Positions 15,080 through 62,455 of a DNA stretch of 64,000 bases are shown piece after piece (position 1 is the stretch's first letter; every line of letters begins with the position of its first letter). The notes under the pieces were generated by a model. That model was given only the letters and a program-made list of their open reading frames with translations. It searched no databases and was not told the DNA's origin. The DNA is from Macrostomum lignano (Eukaryota). The stretch covers positions 89,147-153,146 of the forward strand of contig NIVC01002647.1 of NCBI GenBank assembly GCA_002269645.1. Direction: 5' to 3'. Made by a program: the position numbers and the translations under genes.

Positions 15080-18000
15080 TCTCAATTTGAGGATCTTTGA
15101 ATTTCTCATCCCGATTTGAAAATCTATAGAGTTTTTCATCCAAATTTGAGGATCTGTGTGTTTCTCATCCCAATTTGAGGATTTGTGTAGTTTCTCATCC
15201 CAATTTGAGGATCTGTGTGTTTCTCATCCCAATTTGAGGATCTGTGTGTTTCTCATCCCAATTTGAGGATCTGTGTGTTTCTCATCCCAATTTGAGGATC
15301 TGTGTGTTTCTCATTCCGATTTGAGGATCTGTGTACTTTCTCATCCCAATTTGAGGATCTGTGTAGTTTCTCATCCCAATTTGCGGATTTGTGTAGTTTC
15401 TCATCCCAATTTGAGGATTTGTGTAGTTTCTCATCCCAATTTGAGGATATGTGATTTTCTCATCCCAATTGAAGGATCTGTGATTTTCTCATCCCAATTT
15501 GAGGGTCTGTGTGTTTCTCATCCCAATTTGAGGATATGTGTGTTTTTCATCCAAATTTGAGGATCTGTGTGTTTCTCATCCCAATTTGAGGATTTGTGTA
15601 GTTTCTCATCCCAATTTGAGGATCTGTGTGTTTCTCATCCCAATTTGAGGATCTGTGTGTTTCTCATCCCAATTTGAGGATCTGTGTGTTTCTCATCCCA
15701 ATTTGAGGATCTGTGTGTTTCTCATTCCGATTTGAGGATCTGTGTACTTTCTCATCCCAATTTGAGGATCTGTGTAGTTTCTCATCCCAATTTGAGGATT
15801 TGTGTAGTTTCTCATCCCAATTTGAGGATTTGTGTAGTTTCTCATCCCAATTTGAGGATATGTGATTTTCTCATCCCAATTGAAGGATCTGTGATTTTCT
15901 CATCCCAATTTGAGGGTCTGTGTGTTTCTCATCCCAATTTGAGGATCTGTGTGTTTCTCATCCCAATTTGAGGATCTGTGTGTTTCTCATCCCAATTTGA
16001 GGATCAGTGTGTTTCTCATCCCAATTTGAGAATCTGTGTAGTTTCTCATCCCAATTTGAGAATCTGTATAGTTTCTCATCCCAATTTGAGGATTTGTGTA
16101 GTTTCTCATCCCAATTGGAGGATTTGTGTGTTTCTCATCTCAATTTGAGGATCTGTGTGTTTCTCATCCCAATTTGAGGATCTGTGTGTTTCTCATCCCA
16201 ATTTGAGGATTTGTGTAGTTTCTCATCCCAATTTGAGGATATGTGAGATTCTCATCCCAATTAAAGGATCTGTGATTTTCTCATCCCAATTTGAGGGTCT
16301 CTGTGTTTCTCATCCCAATTTGAGGATCTGTGTGTTTCTCATCCCAATTTGAGGATCTGTGAATTTCTCATCCCGTTTTGAGGAGCATCTTGAACTTCTG
16401 AACCCCATTTGAGGATCTGTAAACTTCTGATCTCAATTTGAGGATCTGTAAACTTCTGATCCCAATTTGAGAATCTGTAAACTTCTGATCCCAATTTGGG
16501 GATCTATAAACTTCTGATCCCAATTTGAGAATCTGTAAACTTCTGATCCCAATTTGAGGATCCGTGAACTTCTGATCCCAATTTGAGGATCCGTAAACTT
16601 CTGATCTCAATTTGAGGATCCGTGAACTTCTGAACCCAATTGGAGGATCCGTAAACTTCTGATCTCAATTTGAGGATCCGTGAACTTCTGATCTCAATTT
16701 GAGGATTCGTAAACTTCTGATCCCAATTTGAGGATCCGTAAACTTCTGATCTCAATTTGAGGATCCGTGAACTTCTGAACCCAATTTGAGGATCCGTAAA
16801 CTTCTGAACCCAATTGGAGGATCCGTAAACTTCTGATCTCAATTTGAGGATCCGTGAACTTCTGAACCCAATTGGAGGATCCGTAAACTTCTGATCTCAA
16901 TTTGAGGATCCGTAAACTTCTGATCCCAATTTGAGGATCCGTGAACTTCTGAACCCAATTGGAGGATCCGTAAACTTCTGATCCCAATTTGAGGATCCGT
17001 GAACTTCTGATCTCAATTTGAGGATCCGTAAACTTCTGATCTCAATTTGAGGATCCGTAAACTTCTGATCTCAATTTGAGGATCCGTGAACTTCTGAACC
17101 CAATTGGAGGATCCGTAAACTTCTGATCCCAATTGGAGGATCCGTAAACTTCTGATCTCAATTTGAGGATCCGTAAACTTCTGATCTCAATTTGAGGATC
17201 CGTGAACTTCTTAACCCAATTGGAGGATCCGTGAACTTCTGATCTCAATTTGAGGATCCGTAAACTTCTGATCCCAATTTGAGGATCCGTGAACTTCTGA
17301 TCCCAATTGGAGGATCCGTGAACTTCTGATCTCAATTTGAGGATCCGTAAACTTCTGATCCCAATTTGAGGATCCGTAAACTTCTGAACCCAATTGGAGG
17401 ATCCGTAAACTTCTGAACCCAATTGGAGGATCCGTGAACTTCTGATCTCAATTGGAGGATCCGTAAACTTCTGAACCCAATTGGAGGATCCGTGAACTTC
17501 TGATCCCAATTGGAGGATCCGTGAACTTCTGATCCCAATTGGAGGATCCGTGAACTTCTGATCCCAATTGGAGGATCCGTAAACTTCTGAACCCAATTGG
17601 AGGATCCGTGAACTTCTGATCCCAATTGGAGGATCCGTAAACTTCTGAACCCAATTGGAGGATCCGTGAACTTCTGATCCCAATTTGAGGATCCGTAAAC
17701 TTCTGATCCCAATTTGAGGATCCGTAAACTTCTGATCTCAATTTGAGGATCCGTAAACTTCTGATCTCAATTTGAGGATCCGTAAACTTCTGAACCCAAT
17801 TGGAGGATCCGTGAACTTCTGATCCCAATTGGAGGATCCGTAAACTTCTGAACCCAATTGGAGGATCCGTGAACTTCTGATCCCAATTTGAGGATCCGTA
17901 AACTTCTGATCCCAATTTGAGGATCCGTAAACTTCTGATCTCAATTTGAGGATCCGTAAACTTCTGATCTCAATTTGAGGATCCGTAAACTTCTGAACCC

Positions 18001-19578
18001 AATTGGAGGATCCGTAAACTTCTGAACCCAATTGGAGGATCCGTGAACTTCTGAACCCAATTGGAGGATCCGTGAACTTCTGATCTCAATTTGAGGATCC
18101 GTAAACTTCTGAACCCAATTGGAGGATCCGTGAACTTCTGAACCCAATTGGAGGATCCGTGAACTTCTGATCCCAATTGGAGGATCCGTAAACTTCTGAA
18201 CCCAATTGGAGGATCCGTGAACTTCTGAACCCAATTGGAGGATCCGTGAACTTCTGATCCCAATTGGAGGATCCGTGAACTTCTGATCCCAATTGGAGGA
18301 TCCGTGAACTTCTGATCCCAATTGGAGGATCCGTAAACTTCTGAACCCAATTGGAGGATCCGTGAACTTCTGATCCCAATTGGAGGATCCGTAAACTTCT
18401 GAACCCAATTGGAGGATCCGTGAACTTCTGATCCCAATTTGAGGATCCGTAAACTTCTGATCCCAATTTGAGGATCCGTAAACTTCTGATCTCAATTTGA
18501 GGATCCGTAAACTTCTGATCTCAATTTGAGGATCCGTAAACTTCTGAACCCAATTGGAGGATCCGTGAACTTCTGATCCCAATTGGAGGATCCGTGAACT
18601 TCTGAACCCAATTGGAGGATCCGTAAACTTCTGATCCCAATTTGAGGATCCGTGAACTTCTGATCTCAATTTGAGAATCCGTGAACTTCTGATCTCAATT
18701 TGAGGATCCGTGAACTTCTGATCTCAATTTGAGGATCCGTGAACTTCTGATCTCAATTTGAGGATCCGTGAACTTCTGAACCCAATTGGAGGATCCGTGA
18801 ACTTCTGATCTCAATTTGAGGATCCGTAAACTTCTGAACCCAATTGGAGGATCCGTGAACTTCTGATCTCAATTTGAGGATCCGTGAACTTCTGATCTCA
18901 ATTTGAGGATCCGTGAACTTCTGATCTCAATTTGAGGATCCGTGAACTTCTGAACCCAATTTGAGGATCCGTGAACTTCTGAACCCAATTGGAGGATCCG
19001 TGAACTTCTGATCTCAATTTGAGGATCCGTAAACTTCTGATCTCAATTTGAGGATCCGTAAACTTCTGATCTCAATTTGAGGATCCGTGAACTTCTGAAC
19101 CCAATTGGAGGATCCGTGAACTTCTGATCTCAATTTGAGGATCCGTAAACTTCTGATCCCAATTTGAGGATCCGTGAACTTCTGATCTCAATTTGAGGAT
19201 CCGTGAACTTCTGATCTCAATTTGAGGATCCGTGAACTTCTGATCTCAATTTGAGGATCCGTGAACTTCTGATCTCAATTTGAGGATCCGTGAACTTCTG
19301 AACCCAATTGGAGGATCCGTGAACTTCTGATCTCAATTTGAGGATCCGTAAACTTCTGATCTCAATTTGAGGATCCGTAAACTTCTGATCTCAATTTGAG
19401 GATCCGTGAACTTCTGATCTCAATTTGAGGATCCGTAAACTTCTGAACCCAATTTGAGGATCCGTGAACTTCTGATCTCAATTTGAGGATCCGTAAACTT
19501 CTGATCTCAATTTGAGGATCCGTGAACTTCTGATCTCAATTTGAGGATCCGTGAACTTCTGATCCCAATTTGAGGATC
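15080..19578. repeat. 4.5-kb 29-bp minisatellite in the RNF145-like intron, two sub-arrays
   Basis: Type A (GAGGATCTGTGTGTTTCTCATCCCAATTT, to ~16365, with a 411-bp block duplicated) and type B (GAGGATCCGTGAACTTCTGATCTCAATTT, ~16400-19578). Confidence 0.97.
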
Positions 19579-19609: not shown

Positions 19610-20034
19610 CTTCGCAAGCACAGCGGATGAAAATAATGCTGGCAGACAGTCCGCTTAGCCCCGCTGAGCATGTCGCCGAAGCAGATGGCGCAGACATCGT
19701 TATGTTGACGCAGCTCCTCAGGTGTAGCATTGGGCAGCGAGCTCAGCCGCTTGGCCGCCAGGCGTCTCAGCAGGAACTTCCGCCAGCCGCTCTGCACTCG
19801 CTGCACAACGTTGAACCAGAAGTGCACAAGCAGGATGGCCAGGCTCAGGAAGCTCCAGTCGCGAGTGAAGAATTCCCTGACACCGAAGCAGACAATGACC
19901 AGGGCCACTAGCAGCTCCACTAGGCGAACGCTCGACTTCACGTAGAACACCAAGTCTTCGAAGCTCTCCTCGGTGGGACCGGACCGGAAGTGGTCGTACA
20001 GGAAGAGGCAGTACAGCACCAGACTGCCTGCCGC
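19610..20034 (-). CDS. RNF145: RNF145-like exon (last TM helices plus RING-H2 start)
   Basis: CAG acceptor at 20035, AG|GTGTG donor at 19609. [43 protein letters not shown] matches the recalled RNF145 sequence (GWKSFLLRRDAV..HNDICAICYQDM). Confidence 0.92.
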
Positions 20035-20242
20035 CTGAGGAGGACGGGATTGCAACTGTAGAATTGGGGATTTTCTGTTGGGAGTTGGGAGTTAAGCTTG
20101 ACACTTTAGAGATTCTTGTCACGGTAACGTTTTCAACGGGGAATCGACAGAGTCCTATGCAGGTCAGCAAAAAGGAAGGAAGAGAATCATCTCTACATGA
20201 GGTGGGAGACGTGTTAATGAGGCAAAAGTAATTGAGCTTCAC

Positions 20243-20917
20243 CTGCAGAGCGGTCAGCAGGCAGCTAAGCGCAATTATCAGCAGCCAGAAGTCCGGCCTG
20301 AACAGGCGCAGCAGCCAGACGGTGAGGTAGACAGGCGCGCACAGCAGCACTGCGATGACAGCCAGGGCCCGTGCGTGGCCACCATACGGCGCCGACTGTA
20401 CAGCGGCGCCGAGGTGCAGCAGCCTCGGGCCGGCGATCTCGTGCACCGAGTCCAGCAGCGAGGACACCAGAATGAAGGCTACAACGGTGACTAGGCTGGC
20501 CCATTGCGGAGTTCGCATTGTGTGCGGCAGGTTGGTTTGCACCGCCACCAACAGGAAGGTGAAGCCCTCCGCCCAGCCGCGCTGAAGGCCTCCGGCAGCG
20601 TCGCCAGCGGCAGCCGCTGCCGCTTGATTGGCGAAGCCTCCGCCGCCACCGCCGCCGCCGCCATTGAGGAAAAGTTTAGTGCATAAAAGTACAAACCATG
20701 AGGCGTGAGACACGGTCACGCACAGGCCGAGTATGCACAGCGGGCTGGAGCAGCTGTCGGACAGGGCGCCCAGCAGTACGATGTCCAAGCCTGTCGCGGA
20801 CGAAGATGCCGCCATCCAGTGCTGAATGAGGCGAAGACTGAAGTTGGATAGCCAGAAGAGTAGCAGCTGTCGGGTCATGTTGTAGTCCTGGAGTGGCATA
20901 AGGCTGCGGTTCAATGC
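20243..20917 (-). CDS. RNF145: RNF145-like exon (TRC8_N membrane region)
   Basis: CAG acceptor at 20918, CAG|GTGAAG donor at 20242, 225 codons. [44 protein letters not shown] matches RNF145 motifs. Confidence 0.9.
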
Positions 20918-20923
20918 CTGCGA

Positions 20924-22135
20924 TGGGGTCTGGGATTCTTCAGTGTTGGGATCTGGGATTCTTAGTGATGGGATCTGGGGATTCTTCAGTGTTGGGATCT
21001 GGGATTCTTAGTGATGGGATCTGGGGATTCTTCAGTGTTGGGATCTGGGATTCTTAGTGATGGGATCTGGGGATTCTTCAATGTTGGGATCTGGGATTCT
21101 TCAGTGTTGGGATCTGGGATTCTTAGTGATGGGATCTGCGGATTCTTCAGTGTTGGGATCTGCGGATTCTTCAGTGTTGGGATCTGGGATTCTTAGTGAT
21201 GGGATCTGGGGATTCTTCAATGTTGGGATCTGGGATTCTTCAGTGTTGGGATCTGCGGATTCTTCAGTGTTGGGATTTGGGATTCTTAGTGATGGGATCT
21301 GGGGATTCTTCAATGTTGGGATCTGGGATTCTTCAGTGTTGGGATCTGGGATTCTTCAGTGTTGGGATCTGGGATTCTTCAGTGTTGGGATCTGGGATTC
21401 TTCAGTGTTGGGATCTGGGATTCTTCAGTGTTGGGATCTGGGGATTCTTAGTGATGGGATCTGGGGATTCTTCAATGTTGGGATCTGGGATTCTTCAGTG
21501 TTGGGATCTGGGGATTCTTCAGTGTTGGGATCTGGGATTCTTAGTGATGGGATCTGGGGATTCTTCAGTGTTGGGATCTGGGATTCTTAGTGATGGGATC
21601 TGCGGATTCTTCAGTGTTGGGATCTGGGGATTCTTCAGTGTTGGGATCTGGGATTCTTAGTGATGGGATCTGCGGATTCTTCAGTGTTGGGATCTGGGAT
21701 TCTTAGTGATGGGATCTGCGGATTCTTCAGTGATGGGATCTGGGGATTCTTCAGTGTTGGGATCTGGGGATTCTTCAGTGTTGGGATCTGCGGATTCTTC
21801 AGTGTTGGGATCTGGGATTCTTCAGTGTTGGGATCTGGGATTCTTCAGTGTTGGGATCTGGAATTCTTAGTGATGGGATCTGGGGATTCTTCAGTGTTTG
21901 GATCTGGGGATTCTTCAGTGTTGGGATCTGGGGATTCTTCAGTGTTGGGATCTGGGATTCTTAGTGATGGGATCTGAGATTTTTAGTGTTGGGATTTGGG
22001 ATTTTTAATGTTGGGATTTGGGATTTTCGTGTTGGGATCTGGTATTCTTTAGTGTTAATATCTGGGATTCTGAGTGTTGGGATCTGGGACTCTTATTGGT
22101 GGGATCTGGGATTTTTGATACTTAGTGTTGGGAGC
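20924..22135. repeat. 22-24-bp minisatellite GGGATCTGG(G)GATTCTT(C)AGTG[T/A]T in the RNF145-like intron
   Basis: Direct reading; begins 7 bp from the splice acceptor and decays toward the donor side. Confidence 0.95.
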
Positions 22136-34200: not shown

Positions 34201-36673
34201 GACAGCATAACCTAAAGCTCCATGAGCTCAGTTTTCAAGCATTGAAGAAGCAGAAGCAGTCATCTTGGATCCAGGGATCAGGAAGAGTGTTGCATGTCCG
34301 ACATGTGCTGTTTCCGTGGCAAAAGGTGATGGAGCAAATTAATCAACACTTACTATCTAGCTCGTATTAAGACTAAAAAACTGAGGCAAGCTGGGATTAA
34401 ACCAAAGAAAATTTTTTACTATACTTTTTTACCATATACTTTTACTATACTTCTATAGTATAGTAGAGAGGTACTCTATTTAAATGCAGTAAGAAGTGAA
34501 ACAAATTTATATATTTAATTATTAAATTAAATTAATTCAAGGTAAATAACTAATTTAACCAATTTATTAGGAGTATTTATTATTATAATAAATTGATTTT
34601 TATACCTTACACGAAATAAGCTCTACATTCATTTCTTAGCTTGGGGCCCATCTGTATAAGGTCAGTTTCTTCAAAATGCTGATTAATTAATTAAGGCCTG
34701 TTGTCTTTACTTAAATTTGTAAGGGCATCTTAGAAGTTAATATTACTATATAATACATGTATAATAGTATTACTATATTATAGTAATATAGTTGCAATTT
34801 TAATGACTATTGAATAAGTTTAAATGCTTCCCCTATTGACTCTAAATATATGGTATTTTTCCCTTCAGAAAAAATTAGCATAGAATGACTTGATGAAAAC
34901 AAAAAAAATCATTTTGAGATACACATTTGCTGATCATTCAGGACAAATTTCAAGGTCCAGTTTTGCACATGTTTCTCTGTAGCTTGGTTACAAGGATTTT
35001 AATAAAAATATAATAAATATGTCCAATGAACTAACTGATACATAGCCAAATTGAAGTATTTTCAAAAACAAAAAAATCATTTGCTCAGTTTACTTTATGG
35101 ATATCTTTGTAAAATTTCAGCTCAAAAGGTGCTCCATGGAGAATGCTAGTGTGGTTACAGGATATTTATTTTGTGCTTCAAAGTAGGAGTTTATTGCGAT
35201 GCATGGTTGCTTTTAATTATTTTTATCAACAATAGTGCTCTATTTCATAACAATTTTTTACAAAAAGATAATAAGACATGTTTTTCTAATTATCTGCATC
35301 AAAATGTATCATTTTAAGCACGCATTCTAGACGTCAGCCGAAAAATACATTTTGTGAGACGCAAAGAGGCTATCCCACCGGAAATGCTAGGCGTACAGTT
35401 AAAGCGTCTATAAAATCATTTGTAGTGCAGTTTATTGAGCTTTAAAAAATTCTTAAATTAAATTTATATAAGCTTTCATTTTAAATGTAATATAGCAAGG
35501 TTTCAACACAACAGCAACTTTTTTTAGCTACAGACATCTTGTAGTATCAAAAATTAACATCGGTGAAATGATTGAATTTGAATTTTTTCATCGCTAATTA
35601 TCGCTTAATACCGCCAGATGATTAAAAATACTTATGTATGATAAAGTTCAACCCAAAAATTATCTTTATTGACAGATAAAAGTGTCCTATTATTTTCAAT
35701 ATGGCAGTAACAATAGTAAATGTTCGGAAAATTGTTAAAATTTTTGCTCCTTCTAGAATTTGCGAACGACCCGCCTGCACTTAGCCAGCTGCTACTTTTT
35801 TACACTTAATTTTTTTCTAAAGGGTGTTTGAAATTTGAATATCGTCATTCAGTGGCCATCTTAAGTGGATTGAAATCACTACAGTAGTAAACACACCACA
35901 GTATATACATACTATAAATTATGCGTTGGAATGTACTTCTTCAGTTTAAATTCTCAATTAGTAAGTAAACCGCATTTGATTGCTGCTTGTATTGTATCTG
36001 CTTGGGATCAGACTATTGTAGTCACAAAATTGTGGCTAGATTTTTATATATATATCGATAATCACTATATATATTATTCTATGACATTTGCTTATGTATT
36101 TGCCACTTTAGTTAAATTATTTGATTTTCTTACAAAGCTCATTGACCTAGCTTAGTCTAATGTTCTTATAATTGTATGAAATCAGGCCTAGGGCCATGCA
36201 TTTTTAGACCTGTTATTTTTATAACTTACAGTAATCATATAAATAGTAAAAGTCGTTTTTTACAGTCAACACTTGTAACAATTACCCAAGCCAAGTATAT
36301 AAATTGAATAATAACTTGCTATATTGCTATAAGGACTCTACTAAAACTACCTAAAATACTAATTATTATAGGCCCTAGTTGTTTTGCTAACAAACATTTT
36401 TAGGACAGTCATTTTGGTAAGTAATTAGCCAAGTCATTTTGGCAAAGATAAGGATCTTTGGATCACCATATTAGATTAGAAAGTTTTGCACAAATTTTGG
36501 CACATGTTTTTACTTTAAAATTTTTCAAAAGAATTTCAAAAGTTTTGGCACTTAAATTTTGTAAGAAAATTTTTATAGTTTTTCCATGTGCAAGTTGCGC
36601 AAGTTTACTAAAGATATGAAATTTTATGATAAAGACCCTATATCTTTATATTTATATATTTGAGTATTCTAAG

Positions 36674-37418
36674 TGTGACAGGCCTTTTGGCTCTGTCTTT
36701 CTAAACTTCTAACTATTAGTGTTTATTAAATATCCTACGAGCTGCCACCAAAGTTGTTACAGGCCTTTCACTTCTTACTTTATCAATTTTAATCCCACCG
36801 ATTTGCCAACTACAGTTATCCTGATTATACTTGCTTTTACTCCCTAACTATTTCTTAGAATTTCATTTAAATATTTCTGGGTAGCGTTCTTAGTAGCGTT
36901 TCTGGTAGCTTATGGCTTGCTTTCTGGTAGCGTTCTAGTAGCTTATGGCCTGAGCGGTCTAGTACTGGTATATGTATTAGTGTATAGTCCTAATCGGGCG
37001 TTCACCGAGACTAGAGGGTCACGGCGCCTCTCTTGGTATATCTCCAAGAATTAGTCCCAATTCCCTTCTCTTAGCAAATTTCTTAGAATCGTTTCACAGG
37101 TTTTGCAAATAAATAAGTCGCTATTTAGCTCAAAGACTTTGAAATGGTTTAGATTGAACTGCTTATTCTGTTCGCAATTATTTGCTCACGAGTATAAGAC
37201 AGTTAGAGTATATTTGTCGCGAAACCGCTCCTATATATAGTGATTTTCCCCACATACGATTAAAACAAAAAAAATAATTCTCCAATTTATTTCGCGCATT
37301 AAAACAAACTATTATTTGGCGTTCGCGTAGATTCAGTTTCTAAGAAAGATTCGAATATACAGTTATTACATTGAAAGAACATTCGAGTATACTATGATAA
37401 AGGCATAGCACTAGTACA
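36674..37418 (-). repeat. 3' LTR of L1 (745 bp)
   Basis: Near-identical to 40950-41705. Confidence 0.95.
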
Positions 37419-37430
37419 ACTTTCCTCCTC
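37419..37430 (-). other. Polypurine tract of L1
   Basis: GAGGAGGAAAGT on the minus strand abutting the 3' LTR. Confidence 0.8.
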
Positions 37431-37704
37431 TATATATCAAATTTTGAACGAAATACTATATTGTATGTATACAGTGAAAAATTGATATCGTAGGAAAATG
37501 TAGGTGAAAAGGTGCAAAGCAAGGTGCAGAAAACACAATTCAGTGCTAAAACAATTGGTGCATAAAATGGTTGTGATAGAACTATTATGTAGGTAAACCA
37601 TTAAAGTGAGAACTATTATGGAAGCAAAACGAACTATTATAAAAGTATTATAAAAGGCAAAATTGTTATTAAAGGCAACGCAAAAGTTAGTTCACCTCAA
37701 TAGT

Positions 37705-38579
37705 TCAGATAAACATGCAGGGCTCCGGGAGGTCGCGATAGTAGGGCCAGCCGACTTGAGCGAAAAACCATCGGTACTCTTCGTCGAGGACCGTCAGCGC
37801 TGGCGGCGGGTTGGCTCTTATAGCTCGCTGGAGGCGATAGGCGACGTCCTGGAGAACAGCGACAGCTTCCTGGTAACTGAATTGATCCCTTAGAAACTTC
37901 AGGTGTGTCCAAATTTGTGAGCATTGGGGTAGCGCTGTCGGCTGTCGGATCGGTGGTACGCTACTTTCAGTGCGTATTGCTCAATGTGGAAGCGTAGCTT
38001 TTCCACCTCTGCTCCGCGAGTCTCCACAAGTTCTCGGACGATGCGATGAAAATCTCTCTGCGAATTCGATTGCTGCTGGCTCGGCTGTAGTGCTGATGGC
38101 TGGCTAGACTGCTGCGCTGATTGCAGGCTCGGCTGCAACGCTGACTGCTGCGCTGATTGCAGGCTCGGCTGCGACGCTGGCTGCTGAGCTGGCGGTGTCG
38201 CAGCTGTCGATTTCTTCTGCCGTGGTGCCGGGGTCTTTCTCGATGATGGGGCAGCTGGCGGTGACACCAACTGCTGCGTTCGGCTTGATGTCGACGATCC
38301 TGGCGTGGCCTTGACAACATAGGAGCGCACGGGCGCAGCTGCCTGTGCTGCCACCAGGGCGGCGCGCTTCTGCTCGGGGCCTTCGACCCTCATTTGGCGG
38401 CAAGGCGATGAAGCTGGCGATGATGTTCTTGGCCGTTTGCTGGATACACCAGGCGCCTTTGGACGTGTTGCACATCGAAGCGGTGCCTCATTTTCGTCGG
38501 TGTTGGGCGCTGGCTGGGGCTCCATATCGTCTGACAGATTGCCAATTAACTCGTCCAAGATATCAATAGAGTTGTTCAT
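37705..38579 (-). CDS. Accessory ORF of L1, unknown function (226 aa as given; ~291 aa if a 1-nt frameshift near 37910 is corrected)
   Basis: ATG at 38579. The frame stops at 37899, but the -1 frame continues WTHLKFLRDQFSYQEAVAVLQDVAYRLQRAIRANPPPALTVLDEEYRWFFAQVGWPYYRDLPEPCMFI* to 37705. Confidence 0.6.
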
Positions 38580-38662
38580 TTTGATTTCTCTGCGAATGGC
38601 TCTTAGAATAGAAAGGAAGCTAGCAGTGAGCTATGGGATCTGTGGGGCCTGCAGGGTGCTCG

Positions 38663-39462: not shown

Positions 39463-40269
39463 ATTCTCACAGCTTCTCTTCGAAATCTCATCTTCATTTC
39501 ATCTCATCTCAACTCAACAACTTCTCGACTCAATATCTCAACTCGACCCTGACCTCTCGAAAGCTTCTCTGCTGAACTCATGCCAGCTACAGCTCTACTG
39601 TCACGGGTCCTACAACTCTTAACAAATTCTCAAATCTCGAATCTCCTTCCGCTATCTCAGTTTGGCCTCGTCAGTAGAATCATAGAAATTCTGTATTAAT
39701 CTGCTCTTTAGGCCTTACTGCCCTTCCTTTCCTGCATGGCCTGACTCTCTGAACCTTTTTTGGCTCTTCTGAAAGCGTCATCGGCCTCTTCTTTCTGCCT
39801 TTGGCCAATCCGCAATTGGTCAGTATGCGTAGCTGTCCGCGCGTCATGCCAATCTCTGCAATCCAATCTTTTCGACAATTCTCTTCGCACAATTCTGCAC
39901 AGTTCTCTCAGCATCAACTTCTCGTCAACTTCTCTGAGTAAAATAATCTTCCTTCAATGTTTTCAGTCCGAAATTGCAGTTCCCTGGCTTTCCTAAATAA
40001 GTTTCTTAGTAAAACGGCCCTTTTAAGGTCAAACGGCCCTTTTAAGGGTCACCTTCCTAAAATTTAATTATTTTATTTCTTTTAGACAGCTTATTTAATC
40101 AGTTGCCTTGCAACATGCCAACAAAATACCTCTTAATCAAATGTTTTTGGGTTTTTCTGAATTTTTTATTCGTTTTTATATTTATGCATATATATTTGAA
40201 ACATATTTACAGATTTGCTTTACAGACACTTTTAATTTGCTGATTCGCTTGAGTTCGCTCACTTTCTGA

Positions 40270-40848
40270 TTATGGCGGCTTCTGCTGGGCGTACCGATTG
40301 AAGTTGATTCGGCACTGGTGTCCTGCTTGAGGCCTAATGGGTCCTGGCTGGTTGCAGAAGAAGCAGTGACCAGGTGTCGGCTCTGGCCTGATTCCACTGA
40401 ATCTGTTCAGGCGGCGCGGTCTTGGCACTGACTGCTGCTGCTGCCCTGTCTTTGGTTCTAGGCTAATGTTCGTTAGCACGAAGGTCAAGGTCATTAGACA
40501 CTCTACTAATGCATCAATTCCCTCTTTTCGGTTCTGCTGCTTCGGCTCAAATTCTTCGATTATTCGTCGCCTAATTTCCTGATACTGACTCTGCTCTTTT
40601 CTGTGACTGATTCGGCGTTTCAGTCCCTCTGGGATGTTTAGATTAGCAAAGAGAGCTTCCTTCTGTTTCTCGCCTGTAATCCCTTGGATTCTGCACTGCT
40701 GCTCAAACGTGTTCATCCACTGCCTAATGTTCTGACCAGGTGTGAACTTTTCTACTTGCACTTCAGCCTCCTTCGATCCTAACTTGAGATGTTTCCTCAG
40801 TTCCTCTGCCAGCATGGCGATGGCATCATTAGCCTGATTCTGATTCAT
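40270..40848 (-). CDS. Gag-like ORF of L1 (truncated or degenerate)
   Basis: Follows the PBS. VEKFTPGQNIRQWMNTFEQQCRIQGIT is a retrotransposon-gag-like N-terminus; a zinc-knuckle remnant CFFCNQPG is present. Confidence 0.65.
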   Translation of the reverse strand: MNQNQANDAIAMLAEELRKHLKLGSKEAEVQVEKFTPGQNIRQWMNTFEQQCRIQGITGEKQKEALFANLNIPEGLKRRISHRKEQSQYQEIRRRIIEEFEPKQQNRKEGIDALVECLMTLTFVLTNISLEPKTGQQQQSVPRPRRLNRFSGIRPEPTPGHCFFCNQPGPIRPQAGHQCRINFNRYAQQKPP

Positions 40849-40929
40849 CTTTTCTCTACGAAAAACTTTTCAAATTATTCTTCGGAATTCTTCTGAATCT
40901 AGCTTTAAGAGTTCGCGCCGTTTCTCTAA

Positions 40930-40947
40930 TCCTTATCGCTGCCACCA
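40930..40947 (-). other. Primer-binding site of L1 (tRNA-Leu-like)
   Basis: TGGTGGCAGCG 2 nt after the 5' LTR, complementary to the recalled tRNA-Leu 3' end (..CCGCTGCCACCA). Confidence 0.8.
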
Positions 40948-40949
40948 GC

Positions 40950-41705
40950 TGTGACAGGCCTTTTGGCTCTGTCTTTCTAAACTTCTAACTATTAGTGTTT
41001 ATTAAATATCCTACGAGCTGCCACCAAAGTTGTTACAGGCCTTTCACTTCTTACTTTATCAATTTTAATCCCACCGATTTGCCAACTACAGTTATCCTGA
41101 TTATACTTGCTTTTACTCCCTAACTATTTCTTAGAATTTCATTTAAATATTTCTGGGTAGCGTTCTTAGTAGCGTTCTTAGTAGCGTTTCTGGTAGCTTA
41201 TGGCTTGCTTTCTGGTAGCGTTCTAGTAGCTTATGGCCTGAGCGGTCTAGTACTGGTATATGTATTAGTGTATAGTCCTAATCGGGCGTTCACCGAGACT
41301 AGAGGGTCACGGCGCCTCTCTTGGTATATCTCCAAGAATTAGTCCCAATTCCCTTCTCTTAGCAAATTTCTTAGAATCGTTTCACAGGTTTTGCAAATAA
41401 ATAAGTCGCTATTTAGCTCAAAGACTTTGAAATGGTTTAGATTGAACTGCTTATTCTGTTCGCAATTATTTGCTTACGAGTATAAGACAGTTAGAGTATA
41501 TTTGTCGCGAAACCGCTCCTATATATAGTGATTTTCCCCACATACGATTAAAACAAAAAAATAATTCTCCAATTTATTTCGCGCATTAAAACAAACTATT
41601 ATTTGGCGTTCGCGTAGATTCAGTTTCTAAGAAAGATTCGAATATACAGTTATTACATTGAAAGAACATTCGAGTATACTATGATAAAGGCATAGCACTA
41701 GTACA
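40950..41705 (-). repeat. 5' LTR of L1 (756 bp)
   Basis: Differs from the 3' LTR by an 11-bp tandem unit and at least one substitution. Confidence 0.95.
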
Positions 41706-41884
41706 TAAGTTAAGTTCAAAATAAACAATAATAAAACAAAATGTTAGTTTTAATTTCTTTTCTAAATAATATATTAATGTTTTGATAGAATTTTTTAAAT
41801 ATACAAATATCCCTATTAGGACAAGTGATATTTTCGTAGATAGTGTCTAGTATACTTTGAAAAGTATTAATGCACTTAGTATAT

Positions 41885-55507: not shown

Positions 55508-58500
55508 TTAGCAACTTGGCGCAACAGAAAATTCATTGGTAAATACCTTTTTAGACTTCGATCTCCGCGCCGATTTCAGGCAAATCTGGGTTGCCTTTGG
55601 GCAGCACTTCCAGATGGCAGAGGCTCGGCTTGAACAATTGGCTGCCACGCAGTTCAGGCTGAGCTGCGGCTGCCTGTTCTGGAGCGGGCTGATTGGCTGG
55701 GTCAATTTTGCTTTCATCGCTCGACTCGTAGGCAACATTGGCCACTCTGTCTGGCGCAGCAGCTCCTGTGGTCGATCTGCCATCATCTGCAGCACCTTGA
55801 TGATGTGATTGCGATGAACTAGCATTTCAGCTGGGCATCCACGTCAGGCTGTCATAGGCTGGATCTTGTAGGCTACTTCGCCGACCTTCCTGTTGACCTT
55901 GTACATGCTTTTGTATGGCTGGTGAAACTTCGGCAGCTCGCCCAACTCGAGCTTCGGGTTGGCCAGGCAGACCAGGTCTCCAGGCTGCAATTCCACTGGC
56001 TTGGGTCGGTTCTCGTAATATTCTTCGCAGCGTTGGATCTCAGCTTGCAATCACTGTCGCACAATCCTTTCAGTCTCGGCCAGTCTACGCTGATGCTTTG
56101 CAATGTACTCGGGGAGGTCCGGTGATACGTCCAGGTGGTCTAGGGTGTTATCGATCAGATACCGATAGGGCACTCCATAGACAATGTAATGCGGCAAGAA
56201 TCCCGTCGTACGGTTGACAGCTGATCTCAGGGCTGTCAGAGCAGCTGGCAGCATCTTGTCCCACTGTTGATGATCTTCTAGGAGATGAGTGAGCACCTTC
56301 TTGATGTTTTTGTTGCACAATTCAGCTTGACCATTGGCCCAGGGCGAATATGGCGGCGTCGTGGTTTGTCGAATGCCATAGACTTTGCAGAAATGTTGAA
56401 ACTCATGCCCTGTGAACTGTTTGCTTTGGTCCAAATAGATCCACGCTGGGATTCTAGTGATTGGGAAGACTTGTTCTTGCAGGAGAGTTATTATCGTCTT
56501 GGTGCGCTGATTCTTTATGGCAAAGCCAATGGATATTTCAACATAGTGTCGACGTAGGTTAGGATATACTTGTTACCACAGTCTGTTGGGTCTCCAATGG
56601 GGCCTAGAGTGTTGATTGCGCATCGCCCATAGATTTCGCAGACCAGAAATGATTGCACATGCGCCGCAATTTGTTGCCTTCCTTTGCTCTGAGTGCAGGT
56701 CTGGCAGGAAGCAATGTAGTCAGACACGGCCTTGGCCAGGGCCAGTCGCCAGAACCTTTCGTGCACCTTTGCAATGGTGAGGTCTCAGCCCATGTGTCTG
56801 CAGTAGGGCAAACCATGCAGGTTGGCAAACACCATGGCGTCGAGACTCTTTGGCAGGATGATCCTCGCTTTATCCTCTTTGCCCTTATTGTTGAGATGGA
56901 TGACTAATAGTCTATCATCTCGGACTTCCAATTGCTCATAGAATGCTAGGAGATTTCGCTCATCTCTTGTTAGATTTAAACGCTGATTCAGCGACAGCTT
57001 TGGTTGTTGACTTTTGATAAGGTTGATCATCATTGCAATGGCGGAGTCAGCACACTGGTGAGTCTGGAGCTCCTCACGTTATAACACTGGTCTTGGGATG
57101 TGATCAGTTAAGTTCAAGGTTTGGCGTGTGTTAGTCGAATTAGTCGGCACGGCTTCAGCTGTGGTGGCATGGTTTGGGGTCTGGAGCTCCCTCCGCATGA
57201 TCGCTACTCTGGCTGGTTGCCAGGTCATTAAAGAATTTGAAGACCAATCCTCGTTGGACATTTTGGCATCATTGTAGGCAAATTTGGATTCGTCAGCAGA
57301 GCTGTTGGTGTCGATGCTGAATCTCACTTTCTTGAACACATGACGGCGAGCGGATTGGCAGTGGTCGTCGCTGGCTGCGCTGTGGTCGCTGTCCTCGTCG
57401 CCTTTAGCTAATAGACAGTGGCTCCTTGAAGGGCAACATGTCGTGCTGCTAAAGCTGGTGGGCGACCTCTGAGTCTTGAAAACGGCTGGCCAATGGCCTC
57501 AGCTTCGTCACTGGCGGGTGCAGTGCTGTCAGCGGCTTGCTATTGGCTGTCAATGATGCTGGCAGCGTAGCCTTGCCATTGGACTCTTTCGTCTTCGTCG
57601 GCAGTTTTCGTCGATTCTGGCAGGTCAGTTGCTTTTTGCTTGGTGGAGAGCTAGGGTGGCTGCTGTTATGGACCTTCGGCGCCGCTGCGCCAGTTATTGT
57701 GGCTGGCTGCTTACTTTGGTCCTCGTCTGCTGCCTCACGCTGAGCCTCCTCCAAGCATTCAGCATCGTCCTCGGGCCGTCTCGAGAGACCGTCAGCATTC
57801 TGATGCTGACTTGACTTTCGATGCAGGATCTCGAACTCAAATTTGCTGAGGCACTGTAGCCATTATCCAAAGATTTCTTCTTGCTGAGTTCACCTTAAGA
57901 TCCAGGTTAATGCGGCATGATCGGTTCAGCAAGTGAACTTCTTAGCCAGCAGGTAGAATCGGAAGTGTTGCATCCCATCTACAACTGCCAATAGTTCTTG
58001 TTTAGTAATCAGATATCGGGCTTCGGCTGGTTTGAGTTGCCGGGAGAAATAGCCAATTGAGCACTCAACCCCATCAGCTTGGTGTTGGCTCAGGCAGGCT
58101 CCGATTCTGGTCACAGAATCATCCGTGTCCAGGATAAACATAACTTCCGGGTCCTCACTGAACTGCGGATATGCAAACACTAATGTTGAAGTCAAGGCTG
58201 CTTTGAGCTGGTCAAACGCGTCTTGCTGGGCTTTTCCCCATAAACAATTGAAATTTCGGATCTTCTTCTCCTTGATTAGATTGTAGAGCAGAGCAGCAAG
58301 TTCTGCATAGCCAGGTACAAATTTAGCATAGTAGGCACACGTGCAGACAAAACTCTTAAGTTGTTGAGCTGTTCTTGGTCTTGGCCAGGTCTGAATTGTC
58401 TCGATCTTCGCCGGGTCAGTTTTGATTCCATCCTTCATTACAATATGCCCAGGTAGTTTAGACTTGCCCAAAATAGATGGCACTTCTTGCCTTTGAACTT

Positions 58501-59960
58501 AAGATTAGCTTCTTGGACTCGCTTGAACACTTCTTCCATATGCTGTAGATGGTTATTAAATTTCTTAGAATAAACAATTACATTATCCAAATAGGCTATT
58601 GCACTTTTGTAGATGATCCTGTTAAGCACAGCGTTCATGTGGCGCATGAAGCTGGCTGGAGCTGAACTTAATCCCATAGGCATAACATTGTAGGCAAATT
58701 GTCTGCGGTGCAGCGTAGCGAAAGCAGTCAGATCTTGATCTTCTGGACGCAGTGGAATCTGATAGTAGCCGCTATTGAGGTCAAACATGCTGAATAGCTG
58801 GCTTCCTTCGAGACTGGCGAATGCTTCTTGGATGTTCGGTATCAGGTATGGAAAGTACTTGCACTTCTGATTCAGACTCCAGAAATCTTGCACAATTCGC
58901 AGGCTGCCGTCCTTCTTCGGGATGATCACCAGTGGGGTGTTGTAGCTGGAGAAGCTCGGTTGGATCACGCCTTTGGCCAGGAGATTGTTGAATAGCTGAT
59001 CCACTTTGGGCAGCAGATGCGGCGGGATCTGGCAAGTCGGCAGATGCACTGGATTCATGTCCTTTAGCACAATACTGTGGGTGACCAGATGAGTTTGGCC
59101 GAGATCGTGTGGCCCCTGAGAGAAGATAGTCTTGTACTTCTTCAATAGCTCAATGACTTGAGCATGCTGGTCACTAGACAGATCTTTACTGATGTCGATC
59201 TCCTTGATCCAAGCGTCAGGATATTCGTCTTGGATTTTATTGACAGAGTCTTCTGGCTTCAGCAGTGGAAAGAACTGTAGCTCGGGCAGTTTGATTGGTC
59301 TAGCAATCCCAACTAAGGCATTCGCACATACTTTGATTGATGTTGTTCCTTGATTAATCATCTTGATAGTGCCTTCTCTGTTAGACATAGATATTAGTGC
59401 AGGCGCGGCGTCTAGATGCTGCATATCTTCTTCGCGCCGAGCCGGTTTTAGTGGCTCGATTACAGTAGGTATACCCTGGTTTTCTTCTTGTCCTTTAGCG
59501 AGTTTAATTTTAATTCAGGTTGATGACAGTGGCAGCACAGTAGTGCTCTTAGCTGTGTAGATTCTGCACGTGGTAGCCTCAGTTCGCATGTAGCGAAGCG
59601 GTGCGGCAGTGCCATCCTTGAAAAACAGCATCCCGGCGGCAAGATCCAGTGAGGTGCTGTACTTGTCCAGAAACTTGAAGCCCAGGATGTTGTCATGCGA
59701 TCCTTTCGCTAGTAGAAACTTGACTGTTGGCTGAAAATTACCTATCTTCACTTTGATAGTTAGTTGGCCTGCCATTTGAATAGGTTCACCATTGTAGGTC
59801 ACGATATGTTGCAGGCAAGGCTCAATTTGGCCACGGAGGGTCAGGTCGTCGGTACATAGGCGGTGCCAGGTGCTGAATCCAAGGACTTCACACTTGGGCC
59901 CAGTGTCAAGTAAGAAAGCGAAATAATGACCTTGAATCTCACCAGTTAGAAACGGATCCC
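55508..59960 (-). pseudogene. Gypsy pol pseudogene of L2 (protease, RT, RNase H, integrase)
   Basis: LLDTG (~59905); FDLNSGYYQI, MPMGL, YLDNVIVYS; LDTDDS..KQELLAVV; HHCC zinc finger, INTLGP, DQSKQF, NGQAE; many stops and frameshifts. Confidence 0.92.
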
Positions 59961-61445: not shown

Positions 61446-62455
61446 TGAGGTGGGGGTGGAAAAAAGTTTTCTTGGAATGGTTGGTTTTGAAGTTTGCTGA
61501 CACCAGTGAGGTGGGGCAGATTCCATGTTTGGATTGCTGCTGATGTCGAGTTCGCATGAATAAAACCGGAAAAATCGCGCAGTTGAATCTCAATGGGAAA
61601 ACTTTCTCCTTTTACTCCAACTGCCAGGTTCTCAAGTCCAGGGGAAGGGTAGTCGTAATCCTAGCAGAGCGGTTGTGTAGCGGCGCGGCATTCAAAGCAA
61701 TAAAACACCAGAGAATTTTGACACTGTAAACTAATGCGTTGAGTTGCTGAGTTTGTTACCTTCAGTAGGGTAGTTGCTGCCACCACCGTAATTTATGTAT
61801 TATGGAACGAATAAGTCTCAGAGCTTTCTTTGAGATGAGAACTTTAGTTATTTTATGCCCCACGGGCAAATGACTCAATAAGATACTATGGCTTATAGAT
61901 CAATGAATAAATATGGATTCAAAGTTTATTAAGTGTTGTTACTTATTTATTGATGAGCAGGCTAAAATTTTTTAATGTTATTTTTGGACAAAGATTAAAT
62001 TTGCAGGCGGCACCTAGGTGCTAAATGAAATAGAAATTAGATACGCTGAGTTTTAAGGAGCCAAACAGGCAAAAATAGCAAAAGATGGAAACAATGAAAA
62101 GAAAAAAAGAAAAGAACAGGAAGGGATGAACATTTCATGAAAATAGAAGGGGTTTATATAGCAGAGAAAACAGGTCCACATATAGGAGCATCTAGTGGAC
62201 AAAACGTTGAACATACATGGTTCACAAATTGGGTTGCATGCAAAAACCGTTGGGAGAAATGCATTTCAACAAAACTTCCAGCATGAGGGCACGCATGTGC
62301 ACTGCATGGACTAACTGTTGGAAAAACCTGTTGGACGAAGTCCAAACCAAGGAAAATAAAATTTAATTTTTGTACACCACGCAGACAGTCTTAGTGGAAA
62401 CAGTTTTAGTTAGTCATCGATACTTGTTCAATCAAAGTGGCATCCGCCTGCCACA
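61446..62455 (-). repeat. 5' LTR of L2 (1010 bp)
   Basis: Adjacent to PBS and gag; TSD ATAT follows. Confidence 0.92.

Follow-up and report, generated by a model that had tools for sequence, protein, structure and literature searches.

An LTR-internal copy of the LTR-end/primer-binding-site junction is probably one unit of a tandem array in a Ty3/Gypsy lineage of Macrostomum lignano

The window element and its repeated junction

The window (the whole 64,000-nt stretch of Macrostomum lignano DNA that was analyzed) carries on its minus strand a young, non-autonomous LTR element, with a gag remnant and without pol, whose two LTRs differ by one substitution, a 1-nt indel, and a 12-nt indel. The parts of this element, its target-site duplication (TSD), and its primer-binding site (PBS) are as follows.

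41706..41709, minus strand: TSD CTTA (TAAG on the plus strand), 5' side
40950..41705, minus strand: 5' LTR of the non-autonomous Ty3/Gypsy element, 756 nt, TG...CA
41067..41084, minus strand: third PBS-like site, truncated, distal 10 nt exact
41031..41044, minus strand: inner copy of the LTR end, with no known insertion ending there
41008..41026, minus strand: inner PBS-like site, 10 nt perfect and mismatched after that
40998..41003, minus strand: AATAAA within the spacer, candidate poly(A) signal
40950..41030, minus strand: last array unit (linker, inner PBS-like site, purine-rich spacer, terminal LTR end)
40929..40947, minus strand: terminal PBS for tRNA-Leu(AAG), 11 nt perfect at the start, distal half mismatched
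40270..40869, minus strand: gag remnant; pol is missing from this copy
37420..37431, minus strand: polypurine tract; an identical tract precedes the 3' LTR in sister copies
36674..37418, minus strand: 3' LTR, 745 nt, TG...CA
36732..36808, minus strand: 3' LTR counterparts of the inner PBS-like site, the inner LTR end, and the truncated site
36670..36673, minus strand: TSD CTTA, 3' side

The element has the TG...CA LTRs, TSD, tRNA PBS, and polypurine tract of a Ty3/Gypsy element, and a 4-bp TSD was found in 54 distinct elements. Sister copies with the same LTR encode a gag with a zinc knuckle and a pol in the order PR-RT-RH-INT, so the element is assigned to Ty3/Gypsy; the position of integrase after RT in these copies excludes the Gmr1 order. 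The RT region of one sister copy is identical to a Macrostomum lignano protein in NCBI, and relatives in other species are 40–50% identical. Gmr1/Osvaldo and Mdg3/Micropia clusters are listed for this species in the available part of PMC12801592.

A third ORF of ∼240–310 codons (37899-38630, minus strand), which has its own TATA-like sequence upstream and no Pfam match, is common to the sister copies. A histone 3' stem-loop (40015-40074, plus strand; Rfam RF00032, E 1e-4, below the gathering score), preceded by a partial second copy, lies antisense within the non-autonomous element where pol has been replaced, and no long ORF precedes it. Elsewhere, the window holds a long 29-nt tandem satellite (∼15749-19500) and a piece of a host gene with a TRC8 N-terminal domain (19718-21007, minus strand).

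On the minus strand, the outer junction reads AAAGGCCTGTCACA (40963-40950), GC, and TGGTGGCAGC (40947-40938), and the inner junction reads AAAGGCCTGTAACA (41044-41031), ACTT, and TGGTGGCAGC (41026-41017). The spacing between outer and inner copies is 81 nt for the LTR-end motifs and 79 nt for the PBS motifs, and the inner junction is repeated in the 3' LTR at 36768-36741. The original prediction, that the LTR contains a near-copy of its own LTR-end/PBS junction, had placed this copy correctly in both LTRs. When the outer junction was aligned locally against the rest of the LTR, the score was 43, and none of 1000 dinucleotide shuffles reached this value (mean 19.7, sd 2.9, maximum 34).

The TSD (41709-41706 and 36673-36670) flanks the outer end, which shows, as had been proposed, that this is the end used by integrase; no LTR ends at the inner site, which the original prediction had named as an alternative position of the boundary. 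The inner junction was found in 76 LTR copies from many contigs (67 of them unchanged and 9 slightly changed at the inner site), so the motif is present in other family members. Since it is also spanned by contigs of independent public runs, it is not an assembly artefact.

The earlier inventory listed this inner copy correctly but as the single extra site, missing a third, truncated PBS-like site, TGGCAAATCGGTGGGATT (41084-41067), whose last 10 nt are the exact distal half of the tRNA complement. Comparison with the related loci L075, L150, and L059 indicates that this site was likely truncated through a deletion between TGGCAAA microhomologies. The window LTR thus contains one full array unit plus the truncated third site. 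A third exact TGGTGGCAGC within the element (38347) lies inside an ORF, has no LTR-end context, and was set aside.

The AATAAA was found between the inner PBS-like site and the outer end (41003-40998), as had been stated, and its role in polyadenylation is putative. This motif is present in the last 130 nt of the LTR in 30 of 54 elements, mostly those of the window's family, and is missing from the whole LTR in 8 of the 54. No poly(A) ends were present among the loose ends listed for the public runs, which consist of contigs only. The predicted presence of the extra PBS near both ends of the transcript, within the R region, depends on this role of the motif and is likewise putative.

PBS-like arrays in related elements

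The first relatives with arrays surfaced in a genome search with an extension seen in two sister copies, and one extension searched genome-wide matches the LTR ends of related families. To sample the lineage, 60 of 144 RT matches were fetched across identity tiers and picked blind to their LTRs. All 35 distinct TSD-verified elements from this sample (RT identity 57–100%) contained at least one inner tRNA-Leu PBS-like copy, 32 of them by the inner-copy pattern and three (L194, L198, and L199) by a separate array scan, in which the scanner had a false-positive rate of 1 in 44,000 shuffled nt. These elements depart from the canonical layout, in which one PBS lies outside the LTR.

The arrays lie at the 3' end of the LTR and are built from units in the order linker, PBS-like site, purine-rich spacer, and LTR end, with unit borders always at the LTR-end/PBS junction. 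The number of units per LTR ranges from 1 to about 20. Across all loci, 194 distinct units with 57 spacer clusters and a median period of 52 nt were found, and the longest arrays (20–21 units) occur in a TSD-flanked solo LTR represented by L210 and L211, which are probably one insertion. Some units are common to several families, and the order of units differs between families. Inner copies are also present in families at 57–58% RT identity, and even at 58% an inner TGGTGGCAGC without any mismatch is retained. In L201 and L202, the LTR contains repeats of the family's own LTR end, so the duplication recurs in separate branches.

A second Gypsy family in the window (RT at 57926-59514) has inner PBS-like copies at 61785 and 61505 in its LTR, followed by a terminal site (61444) that carries a one-base insertion (region 61785-61425, minus strand). 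Another LTR of this second family (42226-41885, minus strand) ends ∼180 nt upstream of the element studied here. The 5'-most inner site often consists of TGGTGGCAGC with CTACC 0–4 nt downstream (L197–L199, L200, L202, L066, L067, L156, and window position 61785); this arrangement, a potential small hairpin, occurs in families 58% apart in RT. L032 and L033 are head-to-tail tandem elements with a common LTR. The sole metagenome match, L203, proved to be a prokaryotic CRISPR-type array with a duplicated spacer and was rejected as a chance match.

Primer tRNA, array growth, and competing explanations

The primer is tRNA-Leu(AAG), with its sequence taken from the genome's own tRNA gene. Among 37 terminal junctions of the window's family, a count that is not deduplicated and comes from an assembly that holds some insertions twice, 23 carry the mismatched window variant, 11 a perfect tRNA complement, 2 a partial one, and 1 a deletion. 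A perfect terminal PBS is present in 20 of 63 elements across identity tiers. Elements with a perfect site are dispersed over the family tree rather than grouped in a clade (7 changes for 7 rows among 23, at least 4 of them forced by starred branches). Because perfect, partial, and imperfect terminal sites are scattered among near-identical copies, the rule stated for Ty1 and Ty3, that the primer is not inherited, does not appear to hold here. The pattern of terminal sites suggests that the element acquires the primer tRNA sequence at whichever site is used, as happens in retroviruses and has been proposed for ETn and MusD of the mouse, with recombination between copies as the alternative. The distal half of the terminal PBS is mismatched or A-inserted in a family-specific way although about a third of copies are perfect, which suggests that copies with a perfect terminal PBS propagate less.

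A second priming site had been one of the functions predicted for the inner copy. For the window's family this was not borne out: none of the 76 LTRs had an inner site converted to the tRNA sequence, and no matches to insertions ending at the inner CA were found in a search that was blind to flanks with C at position 2. The inner site of the window is probably an older unit, now without detectable use, unlike the inner sites of relatives, where tRNA copies do arrive. In prediction, the window's inner site pairs with the tRNA 3' end nearly as stably as the terminal PBS does (-25.3 and -25.6 kcal/mol, respectively), so pairing energy does not account for the choice of the outer site. One joint in public run X1 looked as if the window's inner site had been converted, but its sequence is that of the L204 family's terminal junction and leader, and it was not counted. 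The possibility that inner variants serve other tRNAs was also rejected, as no inner string is within 1 mismatch of the two other Leu-like 3' ends tested.

Asymmetric elements provide candidate growth intermediates. From 90 loci, 54 distinct TSD-verified elements were retained after dropping 18 without a TSD, 17 without an LTR pair in the fetched stretch, and 1 duplicate. In three of these (L036, L150, and L156), extra units are present solely behind the 5' LTR, and the TSD is at the short end; seven further automatic "asymmetric" assignments were gag start codons and were reassigned. The first PBS is a perfect tRNA copy in 3 of 3 asymmetric and 14 of 51 symmetric elements (Fisher p 0.027), a comparison from which L159, asymmetric with an imperfect first site, was excluded for its missing TSD. 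The spacers in the asymmetric extensions follow imperfect PBS-like sites in other families. Two of the three have a symmetric sister in which both LTRs, 100% identical to each other, carry the extension and the TSD flanks the new end: L035 (TSD TGCA) for L036 and L204 (TSD CTAA) for L156. In addition, among arrays with at least two inner units, the 3'-most inner unit was more tRNA-like than the 5'-most in 14 of 22 and less so in 3 (p 0.006).

The intermediates, their symmetric sisters, and this polarity suggest that units are added at the PBS-proximal end via a tRNA-copy step, become fixed in both LTRs in the following cycle, and later decay. The intermediates are few (n = 3), and gain versus loss in each event is not readable from one genome. 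The earlier suggestion that the inner copy is a fossil of LTR growth by junction capture is supported by the pairs L036/L035 and L156/L204, by L150, and by the lineage-wide array.

We therefore regard it as probable that the inner junction belongs, as a single unit, to a tandem array made of LTR-end/tRNA-Leu PBS junctions that were once terminal, an array that likely grows and shrinks during reverse transcription. In the proposed route, which starts as it does for retroviruses, plus-strand strong-stop DNA would include a copy of 18 nt of the tRNA primer. This tRNA copy would sometimes anneal to an inner PBS-like site, on the element's own template or that of a co-packaged relative, either after priming at the inner site or on an extended minus strand; we propose that mismatches in the distal half of the terminal PBS are what lets it land there. 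The product would be a short LTR with a perfect PBS and additional units behind it. In the next cycle, priming at the outermost PBS would bring the extra units into both LTRs and shift the LTR end outward. Inner sites would then lose central pairing and so prime less, and units would be removed or recombined when the polymerase switches templates at short homologies. This model leaves unexplained why the well-pairing inner site of the window shows no use in 76 LTRs, and some long arrays of near-identical units (L210 and L211) may instead reflect slippage at the DNA level. Also counted against the model are the mismatch-free inner TGGTGGCAGC in families as distant as 58% RT identity and the published statement that Ty3-type elements lack inheritance of the primer sequence.

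Terminal and inner sites differ in where they are mismatched. The first 10 nt are intact in 9 of 11 imperfect terminal types versus 7 of 110 imperfect inner strings, the latter omitting those of 28 of 50 spacer-anchored loci. Among spacer-anchored imperfect inner types, which are related strings with positions 15–18 partly fixed by the search, positions 1–4 are kept in 20 of 23 and positions 1–10 in 2 of 23. Inner mismatches amount to 40/92 at G5, 6, 9, and 11 and 6/69 at G2, 3, and 12 (the strings are not independent), and insertions cluster after positions 5–7. Most inner types thus keep end pairing with a central mismatch, whereas the inner copy of the window shows the terminal-type pattern. 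Since the inner mismatches are uneven, pure decay is not enough to account for them. The central breakage fits selection against inner priming, and would also fit a decoy or a second tRNA contact. Of the inner strings, 38 of 110 have an intact distal heptamer, versus 1 of 11 terminal ones (p 0.10), and GTGGGAT is exact in 20 of 38 LTR types (last 420 nt).

The original prediction had proposed asking whether the inner motif is more conserved than its flanks, and the outcome was mixed. The PBS-like part is 73% identical among units with unrelated spacers, units that had been found by their PBS likeness. Among units whose spacers are at least 95% identical, it is 90% identical and so no better conserved than the flank.

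These patterns bear on what, if anything, the array is for. One speculative possibility, of low probability, is a self-renewing polar array that acts as a counter-defence: tRNA copies would be written in, selection would break their centres, and the resulting sites would sequester 3' tRNA fragments, or hold the T-arm, but not prime. Priming would be left to the terminal site, which would also break the fragment seed match. Such an array would also record co-packaged families.

It is rather unlikely that the array is kept as a decoy, with inner sites binding 3' tRNA fragments as target mimics with central mismatches and the terminal PBS pairing with the last 10–11 nt of the tRNA and breaking the distal half read by the fragment seed. 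The intact first 10 nt of terminal but not inner types, the retention of positions 1–4 in spacer-anchored inner types, and the clustered insertions are as a decoy would predict, and family-specific imperfect terminal sites persist despite about one-third perfect copies, much like those reported for mouse ETn and MusD in the available part of PMC7472051. However, the distal heptamer is intact in just 38 of 110 inner strings, the comparison with terminal sites gives p 0.10, and not all LTR types hold it exactly (20 of 38). The inner site of the window has the terminal-type pattern, closely related units show no greater conservation in the PBS-like part than in the spacer, and sites in cis could equally be silencing targets.

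The mirrored mismatch patterns of terminal and inner sites would also be expected if primer binding were bipartite, with the tRNA 3' end on the terminal PBS and the T-arm on an upstream inner GTGGGAT. An exact distal 10-mer is available for this at 41076-41067 in the window LTR, and two tRNA sites are described for gypsy in the accessible text of PMC1635307. We consider this explanation unlikely, as 18 of 38 LTR types have no exact heptamer in the last 420 nt and a single contact would not need 2–20 shuffled units. Nor does the LTR end fold better than shuffles (z 1.0), and hairpin covariation between the LTR end and the PBS-like start was at the level expected (44 of 182 versus 45.4).

Near-identical units in L070, L071, L210, and L211 and chimeric units joined at short homologies (L150 and the 79-nt unit of the window) are what ordinary tandem duplication would produce, whether by slippage or unequal recombination and whether in DNA or between RNAs; the tRNA copy would then have no role, and PBS likeness would merely reflect the duplicated sequence. 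This is quite unlikely as a general account, because all three intermediates, whose donors are imperfect, carry a perfect tRNA sequence at their new junction, and because both the polarity and the constant unit borders at the LTR-end/PBS junction are left unexplained. Finally, chance similarity or a misplaced LTR boundary, which nothing favors beyond the shortness of the motif, is ruled out for practical purposes by the shuffles (0/1000), the TSD at the outer end, the lack of any LTR ending at the inner site, and the arrays in all related families.

Comparison with known systems

The array, as a tandem of former LTR-end/PBS junctions, is real, larger than first noted, and mechanistically informative, and its function is putative. 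LTR ends and the single PBS are usually regarded as fixed, whereas the LTR end of these elements appears to shift outward by one unit after another. Such a shift, for which one genome already offers candidate intermediates, would be a concrete way for LTRs to grow and for families to exchange sequence. With dozens of natural PBS variants in both terminal and inner sites, the proposed trade-off of tRNA priming against tRNA-fragment silencing becomes testable in an invertebrate model. Such arrays can also mislead the annotation of LTR boundaries and PBSs.

The individual parts of this arrangement have precedents, and a PBS array inside an LTR is without a match in the open-access literature searched. 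The available text and five supplements of PMC12801592, on LTR elements of Macrostomum lignano, do not contain "PBS," "tRNA," or "tandem," and no comparable array is described in the available parts of PMC3601003, PMC12471100, PMC4558846, and PMC13537249. The comparisons below refer likewise to the available portions of the papers cited.

CRISPR arrays also combine a conserved repeat with variable spacers, addition at one end, and decayed older units. Unlike in CRISPR, the spacers of the flatworm arrays are related LTR ends rather than foreign DNA, and there is no dedicated acquisition protein. In HIV-1, the primer activation signal is an extended tRNA contact. Gypsy-type RNAs, too, can have tRNA complementarity beyond one site: Drosophila gypsy has two tRNA sites, and Ty3 has a bipartite PBS (PMC1635307). 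The Helenus, Ajax, and Cassandra TRIMs have tRNA-related sequence inside their LTRs (PMC10886601), but it is a sense tRNA or 5S promoter without priming complementarity, whereas here the PBS itself is repeated. In Culex cqgypsy_1, of the Osvaldo lineage, tRNA-derived sequence and a 26-nt LTR duplication lie at the LTR/PBS junction (PMC3286476); that case is a single insertion of two whole tRNAs, and the flatworm array is lineage-wide.

Misplaced transfer has a counterpart in HIV-1, in which tRNA-bearing plus-strand DNA can land wrongly on the minus strand during aberrant second-strand transfer (PMC12657518). The HIV-1 products are defective deletions, whereas the flatworm products keep both ends and pass the extension on. 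The flatworm array is also natural, in contrast to engineered HIV vectors with two PBSs, which have no LTR-end copies. In such HIV-based vectors, Voronin and Pathak (2004) reportedly found the second PBS to be used for initiation.

For inheritance of the primer sequence, the comparison is with mouse elements treated in a review by Cullen and Schorn. The commonest PBS of mouse ETn, MusD, and IAP is mismatched, and perfect "revertants" scattered on the tree are ascribed to copying of the primer tRNA (PMC7472051). The flatworm elements are alike in their mismatched common PBS and scattered perfect copies, and they differ in that the mouse elements have one PBS outside the LTR. According to the same review (section 4.3), the primer sequence is not inherited in Ty1 and Ty3, whereas in the Gypsy-type lineage described here it appears to be. 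The copies thus suggest retrovirus-like primer inheritance in a Gypsy-type element, contrary to the textbook statement for Ty3.
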